DNA of 29,986 bases from a virus. Location of the stretch: the UHGV virus genome UHGV-0038722; one strand, given 5' to 3'. The first letter of the stretch is position 1; each line of letters opens with the position of its first letter. Both the position numbers and the translations under genes were made by a program. The notes below the pieces were generated by a model that saw only the letters and a list, made by a program, of their open reading frames with translations, was not told the origin of the DNA and ran no database searches. Below, one piece after another: positions 1,076 to 19,060 of the stretch.

Positions 1076-1999
1076 TCAGTAGTTATGAACTGAAGGAGGT
1101 AATTCTTTATTCTTAAGTCTCATCCATGCGGAAAGATTCGTTGGTCCGTCTGGCTCATTGATATCAACATCTCGTGTGTGATTGATTAAAACGTCTCTTG
1201 CCATATCGATAATACGGGAGAACTCATAACCGCAGTCATGACATCTGCCGGAATAGTTCGATTGAATTTGTTTTAGTGCCGGATACAGTTCGCGGAATAA
1301 TGCCTGTGAGCGGTTGGCATAATCCCATAACCATACAAGGCTGTTTGCTTCTTTTGCAGAAAGCTCGTTTGCTTTCTTCTCTTGTTTGCCGATTAACTCG
1401 CCTTCAAGCGGAACGCGAGCTGCAAGTGACAGAGCTTCGGTAAACTGCTCATCGCTGATTTCTTTGTATGAACACCCAAAACGAGATTTCAGTGACGACC
1501 ACATGGTGATCATCGCCTTAGCCTGCTTTTCTTTTGGCAGAGACTGACCGCGACTCATGACGAGTTGTTTAATGGCTTCCTGCTGTTCAGTGGTGATTTT
1601 ACCCGGCAACGCCTTTTTAGCTTTGCGTGGGTTAACTACATGGCCTTTAGTCCAGTAGTCGTAGAGCACATCGTCACACTCTTCCTGATACTGGATTACC
1701 TTGTCGCGGATTTCAGGGCGGACTTTGTTAGGACTGATGCTGTTCAACCAAGCTGCCAATTTTCGTAAAGCCATACAAATCATGGCTTGCACCCCACCGG
1801 CAGAAGGTATGGTGATTTCCACCATACCCTTCGAGAAGCGTTGAGAAATCTTCTTATGTTGAGATTTCCAGTCTAGCCCCATTCCCTCAACGATAGGTTT
1901 CATTGGGGTATACGGTTCGCCGTTGTGATTGACAACATAAAGCTCTGCGCCGTGGAATGGTACATTGATAGTAGATACTGCTGTTGCTATACTTTTCAT
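1076..1999 (-). CDS. ant: Antirepressor Ant-like protein (AntA-type N-terminal domain, Cys-containing C-terminal region)
   Basis: 307-aa ORF; N-terminal region resembles AntA/Ant antirepressor domain; located after arc as in P22 immI; AGGAA SD upstream. Confidence 0.7.
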   Translation of the reverse strand: MKSIATAVSTINVPFHGAELYVVNHNGEPYTPMKPIVEGMGLDWKSQHKKISQRFSKGMVEITIPSAGGVQAMICMALRKLAAWLNSISPNKVRPEIRDKVIQYQEECDDVLYDYWTKGHVVNPRKAKKALPGKITTEQQEAIKQLVMSRGQSLPKEKQAKAMITMWSSLKSRFGCSYKEISDEQFTEALSLAARVPLEGELIGKQEKKANELSAKEANSLVWLWDYANRSQALFRELYPALKQIQSNYSGRCHDCGYEFSRIIDMARDVLINHTRDVDINEPDGPTNLSAWMRLKNKELPPSVHNY

Positions 2000-2066
2000 G
2001 TCGTTAATTCCTATGCGTGGTTTTACGATACCGAAGCCCTGACTGTTACCGCAGTTGGGGCTTCAA
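1997..2066 (+). ncRNA. Putative sar-like antisense RNA covering the ant start codon and RBS
   Basis: Plus-strand sigma70 promoter (-35 TTGATA 1965-1970, 17-bp spacer, -10 TATACT 1988-1993) firing antisense into ant start; hairpin 2033-2064 followed by U-rich stretch; architecture matches P22 sar (inference). Confidence 0.35.
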
Positions 2067-2266
2067 CTTTCTGCTCTATCAGTTATATCTTTCCCTTCAT
2101 ATACTTCACCTATATTGCTAATGCTGGCAGAACATCCAAGATGCTTGTATCTTATGATGTCCAACACGCAGTCACTACACAGCATCCGACCTGTTTCTTT
2201 AGAGTAAATGTATGTTTGATCAGCGTCTGATTCGCTAATGCCGCAGAAACAACATTCTTTACTCAT
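2063..2266 (-). CDS. Small cysteine-rich (zinc-ribbon-like) protein between arc and ant, unknown function
   Basis: 67-aa ORF with CCFCG...CSDC motifs; ATGA start/stop overlap with arc indicating translational coupling. Confidence 0.55.
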   Translation of the reverse strand: MSKECCFCGISESDADQTYIYSKETGRMLCSDCVLDIIRYKHLGCSASISNIGEVYEGKDITDRAES

Positions 2267-2403
2267 ACCGTTATCCCCTCTCTCTTCAGGCTGTCCATCA
2301 CCCGTTTAATTACTTCTGCACTAAATGAGCGACACTCTTCCTTTGCTTTCTCTTCAAGGATTTTTTCTAACTTCTCTGGCATACGCAGTGTTTTTACCTT
2401 CAT
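2263..2403 (-). CDS. arc: Arc-like ribbon-helix-helix repressor
   Basis: 46-aa ORF (below ORF-track size cutoff; hand-translated MKVKTLRMPEKLEKILEEKAKEECRSFSAEVIKRVMDSLKREGITV); resembles P22 Arc (RSVNSEIYQRVMESFKKEG); GGAGG SD; divergent from mnt. Confidence 0.75.
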   Translation of the reverse strand: MKVKTLRMPEKLEKILEEKAKEECRSFSAEVIKRVMDSLKREGITV

Positions 2404-2415
2404 TGCATCCTCCGT

Positions 2416-2480
2416 TGTATGTGGTACGCATACATAGTATTTAGGTACGCATTGATAGTCAATAGATACCTACATATCCT
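2416..2480. promoter_or_regulatory. Divergent overlapping promoters Pant (minus) and Pmnt (plus) with two operator-like inverted repeats
   Basis: Pant: -35 TTGACT (2457-2462) and -10 TACTAT (2434-2439) on minus strand, 17-bp spacer; Pmnt: -35 TTGATA (2452-2457), -10 TATCCT (2475-2480); inverted repeats tgtatg-N7-cataca (2416-2434) and attga-TAG-tcaat (2451-2463). Confidence 0.6.
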
Positions 2481-2508
2481 GTGGTAAAAAATTATTCAGG
2501 ATGTGCCG

Positions 2509-2760
2509 ATGTCTGATCGTAAGTACAAAAACCCTCAAGTGAATCTGAGGCTTCCTGTAGAGATAAAGGAGCGTCTTATTGAACTGGCTGAGGCTAATTC
2601 TCGTTCATTAAATGCTGAGATGGTCGCGGCACTTGAAGCGTGGACCGAAAAAAATAAACACATTCAAGCACTAGACCTTGCAACTATAGCATCACGATTG
2701 ATAGATCTTGAACGCGATGTTGAGACGCTAAAGACCATGTATGGTAAGGATGAAAAATGA
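2509..2760 (+). CDS. mnt: Mnt-like ribbon-helix-helix repressor
   Basis: RHH N-terminus (PQVNLRLPVEIKERLIELAEANSRSLNAEMVAAL) plus C-terminal helical region; divergent from arc as in P22 immI; ORF track starts at 2503, AGGA SD favours ATG 2509. Confidence 0.75.
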   Translation: MSDRKYKNPQVNLRLPVEIKERLIELAEANSRSLNAEMVAALEAWTEKNKHIQALDLATIASRLIDLERDVETLKTMYGKDEK

Positions 2761-3122
2761 GTGACAATTCAGGATACTCAGACGATCAACTGCGAGAGGC
2801 TGAATATCGCAAGGCGCTATCGTCTATAACTACAAAGGTTCTCGACTCTTTCTTGAGAGCTAAAGGTGTTCCAGACGAATGCCCAATGTGCGGGCAGTCT
2901 GAAATGGTTGTCCCTCAAGTTCAATTTGTAAATCAGGATAATGGAAAAGACATCATGGGTAGGCATGCCCATTATGGTGAATATATAAAAAACGAAGATG
3001 AATCATTCAACCCAATAAATTACTCTTATCATGTAATTTGCAAGCATTGCGGATACATTATGCAGTACAACACAGGTGTTGTGTTAAGCTGGTATCTAAG
3101 GGAGAAAAACAGCAATGTCTAA
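2757..3122 (+). CDS. Hypothetical zinc-ribbon protein, first gene of mnt-coupled accessory cassette
   Basis: 121-aa ORF; ATGA overlap with mnt stop; CPMCG and CKHCG motifs; no family recognised. Confidence 0.6.
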   Translation: MSDNSGYSDDQLREAEYRKALSSITTKVLDSFLRAKGVPDECPMCGQSEMVVPQVQFVNQDNGKDIMGRHAHYGEYIKNEDESFNPINYSYHVICKHCGYIMQYNTGVVLSWYLREKNSNV

Positions 3123-3450
3123 GTTGAAGTTGGCTTACGATGCTGACAATCCTTTTCCGAATAGCGAATTTGCCCCCATCGGAATTGAAGACTCAGAAGA
3201 GCCAGCACATGGAGGTGGCAATGGAGGAGGATCAGATATGAACAGTAGAATGACCCGCATTGAAACGATTGCCGCCAACCAAGAAAAGCTAATATCAGAA
3301 ACTAGAAAAGAGTTGATTGGCATCCGTGGCGACATGCACGGAATGGAGCGTCGCCTAGCAGATAAGATGGACGAGAATCAGAAGTGGCTTATCGCCCTCA
3401 TGATATCTGCAATCCTTGCTCCGCTGTTTATTGCCTTGGTTACCAAATAG
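3115..3450 (+). CDS. Hypothetical tail-anchored membrane protein (C-terminal TM helix)
   Basis: 111-aa ORF overlapping upstream gene by 8 nt; GGGAG SD; Gly-rich linker GGGNGGG; hydrophobic C-terminus WLIALMISAILAPLFIALV. Confidence 0.6.
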   Translation: MSKLKLAYDADNPFPNSEFAPIGIEDSEEPAHGGGNGGGSDMNSRMTRIETIAANQEKLISETRKELIGIRGDMHGMERRLADKMDENQKWLIALMISAILAPLFIALVTK

Positions 3451-3471
3451 CTACTAACTAAGGAGATTTGT

Positions 3472-3795
3472 GTGTATACAACAGTTATCGTGATAGCTAT
3501 CGCACTCATTGTGGTTCAGTACCAACTGGCATCTTTAAAACAAAAGATATCTGACCTCAAGACTGAGAACGAAGCACTTAAAAACTCAATAAAAGATGAG
3601 AAGAACAAACTATCATTCACTATATCTGATATTGAGCAATCCATTGAAATTATTGAGAATAATATTAACAGACTAAAAAAAGAAGATATTCATGAAATCA
3701 ATGACAATATCAAGGATTTGAAATCTTGGCTTAGGAATGTAGGACAAATCGCCACATCAACACGAGATAAGCTCAATCCATCCATGGATGATTAA
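3472..3795 (+). CDS. Hypothetical membrane-anchored coiled-coil protein (N-terminal TM helix)
   Basis: 107-aa ORF, GTG start with AGGAG SD 6 nt upstream; N-terminal TM YTTVIVIAIALIVV then K/E/N-rich heptad-like sequence; strongly AT-rich. Confidence 0.55.
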   Translation: MYTTVIVIAIALIVVQYQLASLKQKISDLKTENEALKNSIKDEKNKLSFTISDIEQSIEIIENNINRLKKEDIHEINDNIKDLKSWLRNVGQIATSTRDKLNPSMDD

Positions 3796-18858: not shown

Positions 18859-19003
18859 CAGTAATTACCTTTTAGTGATGAACCTTGTCACACAGGATTC
18901 CGGCCCACAGAAAGGTACCGATCACCAAACCGGCATCCTCAAGGGTCATCCTGAAAGGTTCTGTGTTCATAAGTCGCGCGTGTGAAGCGCGTTTACTGCG
19001 GAC

Positions 19004-19029
19004 ATAAAAAAGCCCCGCATCGCGAGGCT
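19004..19029 (-). terminator. Rho-independent terminator downstream of Rz
   Basis: Hairpin gcctcgc-gau-gcggggc on minus strand followed by UUUUUUAU. Confidence 0.6.
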
Positions 19030-19060
19030 CATTAAATGGACTTTGTGATTTGCAAAAAAA

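Follow-up and report, generated by a model that had tools for sequence, protein, structure and literature searches.

The element at positions 2000–2069 of the plus strand is, with high probability, the sar RNA of a P22-like prophage, lying antisense to the translation start of the antirepressor gene ant and belonging to a known, widespread RNA family that here simply went unannotated. The window, the whole stretch of 29,986 nucleotides of the virus genome UHGV-0038722 that was analysed, is an E. coli P22-like prophage (Lederbergvirus, CUS-3-type). Homology, position, structure and the conservation of promoter and hairpins are all in place, and the decisive evidence that lifts the assignment above chance is a full-length match to the Rfam sar family together with the pattern of conservation among relatives. 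The features of the region, in order of position, are:

1076–1999, minus strand: ant, antirepressor gene of 307 aa and predicted target of sar (Pfam P22_AR_N, E 2e-45; P22_AR_C, E 1e-27)
1965–1970, plus strand: −35 element of Psar, TTGATA, 5/6 to consensus (promoter scan; aligns with the P22 Psar −35)
1985–1993, plus strand: extended −10 element of Psar, TGcTATACT, within ant codons 2–5 (identical in the window and P22)
1997–1999, minus strand: ATG start codon of ant (ORF 1076–1999)
2000–2069, plus strand: predicted sar RNA, about 69–70 nt (RF00262 match; alignment to the P22 misc_RNA sar)
2000–2029, plus strand: stem-loop I (SL-I), with the anti-Shine–Dalgarno UUCCU at 2008–2012 in its apical part (minimum free energy (MFE) folds)
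2008–2012, minus strand: Shine–Dalgarno AGGAA of ant, 8 nt upstream of the ATG (from sequence; fully within the predicted sar RNA)
2033–2064, plus strand: stem-loop II (SL-II), the sar terminator hairpin, followed by AACUUUCU at 2065–2072 (identical to P22; inverted repeat I2)
2063–2266, minus strand: orf67, small CxxC...CxxC protein (CCFCG...CSDC) of 67 codons (PHROG 7150, E 3e-50, full length)
2263–2403, minus strand: arc-like ribbon-helix-helix repressor gene, first in the Pant operon (Pfam Arc, E 2.9e-9)
2434–2480: predicted divergent promoters Pant (2462–2434, minus strand) and Pmnt (2452–2480, plus strand) with overlapping −35 elements (promoter scan, 9/12 each)
2509–2760, plus strand: mnt-like ribbon-helix-helix repressor gene (Pfam Arc, E 3e-10; PHROG 795, E 1e-26)

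With the sar covariance model (RF00262), the window gives a match at 2001–2068, on the plus strand only, with 85.7 bits and an E value of 6e-17. This score is twice the gathering threshold of 43, and the match spans model positions 1–68 of 68. In the whole window, sar is the sole Rfam family above threshold. Aligned to the P22 RefSeq record, which served as reference and annotates promoter, misc_RNA and terminator of sar, the Psar promoter, the RNA and the terminator of the window match the annotated features column for column, and they do so with the sar of epsilon34 as well. The ends of the RNA were placed by homology with the 68/69-nt P22 transcript: G2000, the base beside the ant ATG, aligns with the annotated P22 sar +1, and the 3′ end falls near U2068–2069. 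The predicted RNA is perfectly complementary to the ant mRNA leader, Shine–Dalgarno included. The original prediction, of a sar-like antisense RNA directed against the ant translation start, is thus supported by the covariance model, the alignment to P22 and epsilon34, the homology of Ant and the immI neighbours. It had the ant ATG at 1997–1999 and a transcript covering the Shine–Dalgarno, in agreement with the predicted RNA, with 2008–2012 inside 2000–2069, and its estimate of 65–80 nt includes the length of about 69–70 nt given by homology. It had placed the start of the RNA on the ATG itself, which the alignment corrects to G2000, beside the ATG.

Scanned permissively with Rfam, the whole window gave no more than a chance-level match besides sar, and no tRNA genes were found in it. 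A sub-threshold match to the Xanthomonas sRNA asX2 at 18952–19030 (plus strand; 26.5 bits against a gathering threshold of 70, E 0.27) is most likely due to chance.

Psar consists of TTGATA and, after a spacer of 17 bp, TATACT at 1988–1993, extended by TG at 1985–1986. With 10 of 12 positions, this promoter-like site is the top scorer of the first 5 kb in the promoter scan. Taken by itself, the promoter match does not exceed chance: allowing at most two mismatches to TTGACA-N17-TATAAT, the 30-kb window holds 2 sites, against 2.78 expected from shuffles. The −10 element is contained in the first five ant codons, ATG AAx AGT ATA GCA, and the synonymous positions of AGT ATA GCA are conserved in 11 of 13 phages; the codons that follow are unrelated between sequence classes.

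The RNA at 2000–2070 (71 nt) folds into two hairpins with −29.8 kcal/mol (z = −4.8 against shuffles). The complementary strand also gives two hairpins, with −20.2 kcal/mol and z = −2.7. SL-II, with a 14-bp stem and a 4-nt loop, reaches −23.4 kcal/mol on the plus strand against −18.0 on the opposite strand, where the energy is weaker since its G-U pairs turn into A-C mismatches. This strand asymmetry argues that selection works on the plus-strand RNA. The tail after SL-II is short (AACUUUCUGCUCU) and did not pass a simple terminator scan. The eight bases that follow the hairpin hold four U, and the hairpin itself is identical to the annotated terminator of P22, where the tail (AACUUUACG) is equally short. 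A near-consensus promoter (TTGATA, 17 bp, TATACT) and a strong hairpin at 2033–2064, both of which had been called from the sequence, are therefore present as described, the latter with its 14-bp stem; of the U-rich stretch said to follow, a tail exists, in a short form that fails the simple scan.

To compare relatives, 13 phage copies were aligned, all of them sar matches at 45–98 bits, which form about five sequence classes. Mean pairwise identity among classes is 0.92 for the linker plus SL-II and 0.83 for the extended −10. It falls to 0.51 in SL-I, 0.41 in the promoter spacer, 0.35 past the tail and 0.34 in the flanking ant coding sequence, so that conservation sits on the control and structural elements of sar, synonymous positions of ant included. 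The extended −10 and SL-II are the only parts conserved across relatives; the sequence of SL-I varies, with its pairing kept. Folded one by one, the 13 copies all give the same two-hairpin architecture as their MFE structure. Applied to 11 copies aligned with MAFFT, RNAalifold recovered SL-II and not SL-I, because the arms of SL-I are one base out of register between P22-type and window-type linkers.

A scan of viral contigs (IMG/VR) with the SL-II sequence found at least 120 loci (L015–L134). Among the matches listed there are 26 distinct SL-I variants, 25 of which have an MFE helix of 5–12 bp that begins directly after the ant CAT. These listed variants include 11 distinct helix sequences, with, for example, G-C/A-U and G-C/U-A/A-U at pairs 4 and 5, and across them the anti-Shine–Dalgarno lies in the apical part of SL-I. 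The SL-I type of the window is the second commonest among the listed matches. Weaker sar matches (48 bits, just above threshold) occur in the Salmonella phages SPN3UB (L009) and S107 (L010), both at 524–592. They lie upstream of a ‘Rha protein’ gene in phages outside Lederbergvirus and have TACAAT as −10, which suggests that the sar module may also serve antirepressor-like genes of another family.

The chance-level promoter match is compatible with a different reading, in which the conserved hairpins act on the minus strand as a leader structure of the ant mRNA, the promoter motif is a coincidence and this phage produces no functional antisense RNA. On the minus strand, the structure might stabilise the mRNA between cistrons, serve as a processing site or act as an attenuator after arc/orf67. 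The two hairpins of the complementary strand fit such a role, and so does the stop codon of the upstream ORF, which lies in the base of the hairpin in every cargo-gene variant among the listed loci. We nevertheless consider this improbable. Stability clearly favours the plus-strand hairpin, its minus-strand counterpart is followed by no U tract, and the covariance model matches the plus strand only. The extended −10 TGcTATACT is kept at synonymous positions of ant, next to codons that diverge. In addition, the plus-strand RNA of P22 has been detected experimentally, as sar reads in P22-infected cells (PMC13397905).

In P22, sar is an RNA of 68/69 nt that blocks translation of the ant mRNA by pairing at the ribosome-binding site (RBS) and that works alongside Mnt and Arc to set Ant levels (PMC12197685, PMC7968456, PMC2629481, PMC11016777). 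In the window, the sigma-70 promoter Psar, embedded in the first ant codons, would fire away from ant and give a plus-strand RNA of about 70 nt (approximately 2000–2069) that ends at a stable hairpin and a short U run. This RNA would pair with the arc–orf67–ant transcript and occlude the ant RBS, and by that occlusion would lower antirepressor synthesis post-transcriptionally. As such, sar would form a third layer of control atop the Mnt-like and Arc-like protein repressors of immI. We assign the P22 mechanism since all sequence elements are intact and the −35 is nearer to consensus than that of P22. It is very likely that sar works in this phage as it does in P22, the work on which is the basis from which we infer both its transcription and the repression of Ant.

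Alternatively, sar could act chiefly by interference between convergent transcription from Psar and from Pant/Plate, or by cleavage of the duplex, with RBS occlusion secondary. Psar and Pant are indeed convergent and about 430 bp apart, and the near-consensus −35 TTGATA, better than that of P22, would also suit such a mode of action. However, the transcripts overlap by only about 70 nt, a segment that covers the Shine–Dalgarno exactly, the anti-Shine–Dalgarno is displayed in the apical region of SL-I across the listed variants, and reviews of the P22 work give translational repression by base pairing. We see little chance that interference or cleavage is the main mode of action and retain translational repression as the preferred reading.

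The gene neighbourhood agrees with an antirepressor locus of the P22 type. The protein encoded by ant is 50% identical to P22 Ant over the compared part, and PGAP names it ‘phage antirepressor N-terminal domain-containing protein’; the product of 2263–2403 is named ‘Arc family DNA-binding protein’. As in a P22-type immI, Mnt-like and Arc-like ribbon-helix-helix repressors flank divergent predicted promoters upstream of ant. The Pant operon departs from the two-gene form of P22, in which arc is followed directly by ant, in that orf67 lies between the two. Judged by sequence, the mnt-like gene, the arc-like gene, orf67 and ant make up a complete immI region. The mnt-like ORF was scored at 2503–2760 (plus strand), and the PGAP coding sequence begins at the ATG at 2509. 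Pant and Pmnt are putative promoters. Around them lie a 21-nt tandem repeat at 2423–2464 (GGTACGCATACATAGTATTTA / GGTACGCATTGATAGTCAATA) and an inverted repeat TGTATG-N7-CATACA at 2416–2434, candidates that may serve as operators for the Arc-like and Mnt-like repressors.

Downstream of mnt, three small genes of no assigned function occupy 2757–3795 (plus strand). They encode a 121-aa CxxC...CxxC protein (PHROG 4293), a 111-aa protein (PHROG 6324) that has a membrane segment at its C terminus and gives weak XhlA/holin-like matches and a 107-aa coiled-coil-like protein (PHROG 5962), and are probably moron genes expressed from the prophage.

In P22, transcription from Pant activates Psar. In the window, the two promoter regions share a 15-nt repeat, CATTGATAGTnnATA, at 1963–1977 and 2450–2464 on the plus strand, which spans the Psar −35 and the overlapping −35 elements of Pant and Pmnt, respectively. 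The copy at 2450–2464 belongs to a near-palindrome, ATTGATAGTCAAT, of which the Psar copy is only one half. Both copies occur together in 10 of 16 window-type loci and in 6 of 91 others, among the matches listed. The repeat was considered as an operator that would place sar under the control of Arc or Mnt. Several points speak against this: the loci are linked and related, phage TL-2011b is without the repeat, and the palindrome at Psar is half complete. Linkage could account for the co-occurrence, as could common −35 hexamers or a half-site for a repressor at Psar.

Across the immI interval, identity is 96% to CUS-3, the closest phage, and 100% to the chromosome of E. coli strain ws5-3, and sar is annotated in neither of these two records; UTI89 and IHE3034 are 98% identical. 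In the CUS-3 record, both sar and arc are unannotated and the interval is labelled ‘bsq2 boundary sequence’; in an earlier comparison, arc was described as seemingly absent (PMC2629481). An Arc-family gene is present in the window (Pfam Arc, E 2.9e-9 for 2263–2403) and in CUS-3-type prophages. CUS-3-type prophages of E. coli (among them those of UTI89, IHE3034 and APEC O18-type strains) thus carry a complete immI with sar and arc, which is of use for correcting annotations and for studies of induction in these prophages. The significance beyond annotation is small, sar/ant being a classic example of antisense regulation. Among 5,426 complete E. coli genomes, 231 contain the 116-bp interval, 78 of them with at least 99% identity. 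That the element is an inactive relic of a decaying prophage, as its place in a prophage and the missing annotation of sar and orf67 in the closest records might suggest, is scarcely credible, given that the −35, the extended −10, both hairpins, ant, arc and mnt are all intact, that the interval is so widespread and well preserved among complete E. coli genomes, and that the SL-I type of the window ranks second among the 26 variants of the listed viral contigs.

At its 3′ end, sar meets orf67, which lies between arc and ant. The start of orf67 overlaps the arc stop (ATGA) with GAGGGG upstream, and its TGA stop lies within the base of the sar terminator stem. Neither the CUS-3 record nor PGAP's annotation of E. 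coli ws5-3 includes the gene. A search of Pfam with orf67 gave no match, and PDB sequences gave weak RING-finger matches only. An exhaustive HMMER search returned one plausible homologue of 68 aa and long Cys-rich repeat proteins. The AlphaFold model has a pLDDT of 60, rising to about 70 over residues 1–40, and a Foldseek search of the PDB with it found nothing below E 0.1, with generic RING and ZZ fingers as the only hits. On these results, orf67 can be described as a putative small zinc-ribbon-like protein, with no closer label; a ClpX-type zinc finger, like the 60-aa protein that takes this slot in other phages, was considered. On a public 2.5-kb contig, the protein P0001 (112 aa) is an in-frame fusion of an arc-like protein and orf67, presumably the result of a frameshift at the ATGA overlap or of an assembly error.

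The place taken by orf67 is filled in several ways among relatives. The gene adjoining the sar terminator was tallied in 95 related viral loci, among the matches listed. It is arc directly in 61 loci, orf67 in 16, an unrelated 73-aa ORF in 9 and a 74-aa Cys-rich protein in 3; two loci have a 60-aa ClpX-type zinc finger (PF06689, 43 bits; locus L048 is an example) and two an 89-aa membrane protein. In the listed loci, all cargo ORFs in the arc–ant slot end at a TGA inside the invariant sar hairpin, and the downstream modules (arc or cargo) reassort freely with different types of ant, Psar and SL-I. By this free reassortment, the invariant hairpin behaves as a mosaic joint, in agreement with the ‘boundary sequence’ label of CUS-3 and with the description of the ant moron as being in ‘rapid flux’ (PMC2629481).

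The invariant 3′ half of sar comprises the linker and the terminator hairpin, about 38 nt, and is identical in P22-like phages despite differing ant genes, SL-I and upstream genes. It may be a fixed recombination joint for the exchange of ant modules and of arc/cargo modules. Since phages share this 3′ half unchanged, sar from a resident prophage could also pair with any incoming P22-like ant leader. That this half is more than a terminator, combining a joint for module recombination with a cross-phage dampening of antirepressor synthesis, is a speculative proposal that we regard as rather unlikely. If it were true, antirepressor synthesis of incoming phages would be dampened regardless of their immI specificity.

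Among known antirepressor controls, the c4 RNA of P1/P7 is processed from the transcript of its own target and not transcribed from the opposite strand. It is not homologous to sar, and the window has no c4 match in Rfam. Like sar, it is a small RNA whose pairing around the RBS blocks translation of ant, an antirepressor gene; according to a review table it acts in trans and is 77 nt long (PMC12197685). The sar RNAs annotated in epsilon34 and other Lederbergvirus phages, identified ‘by similarity with P22 Psar’, belong to one family with that of the window and share its ‘ant moron’ position between the tailspike and gene 16 homologues. The sar of epsilon34 differs in its P22-type SL-I and in having arc straight after it.

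The closest comparison is with P22 sar itself, the primary work on which (Liao et al. 1987, Wu et al. 1987, Schaefer & McClure 1997) is cited in PMC2629481. In both phages, the promoter lies within the opening codons of ant and has the same extended −10 (TGCTATACT; TTGCTATACT), and the RNA starts beside the ant ATG, with the ant CAT in the same alignment column. Both RNAs form two hairpins with the anti-Shine–Dalgarno in hairpin I and are antisense to the ant leader in an immI of mnt, arc and ant. Identity is 100% from the linker ACCG across the terminator hairpin to AACUUU. By contrast, SL-I of the window is only 35% identical to that of P22, since it tracks a different ant leader, and it is one base longer, which accounts for the extra base of the window RNA as a whole. 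The −35 of Psar is GTGTTA in P22, poorer than TTGATA of the window. The 3′ end of sar abuts orf67 in the window, because this gene separates arc from ant, and arc in P22. Finally, the predicted Pant and Pmnt of the window stand back to back by their −35 hexamers, whereas the promoters annotated in P22 overlap fully. These differences from P22 leave the identity of the RNA unchanged.
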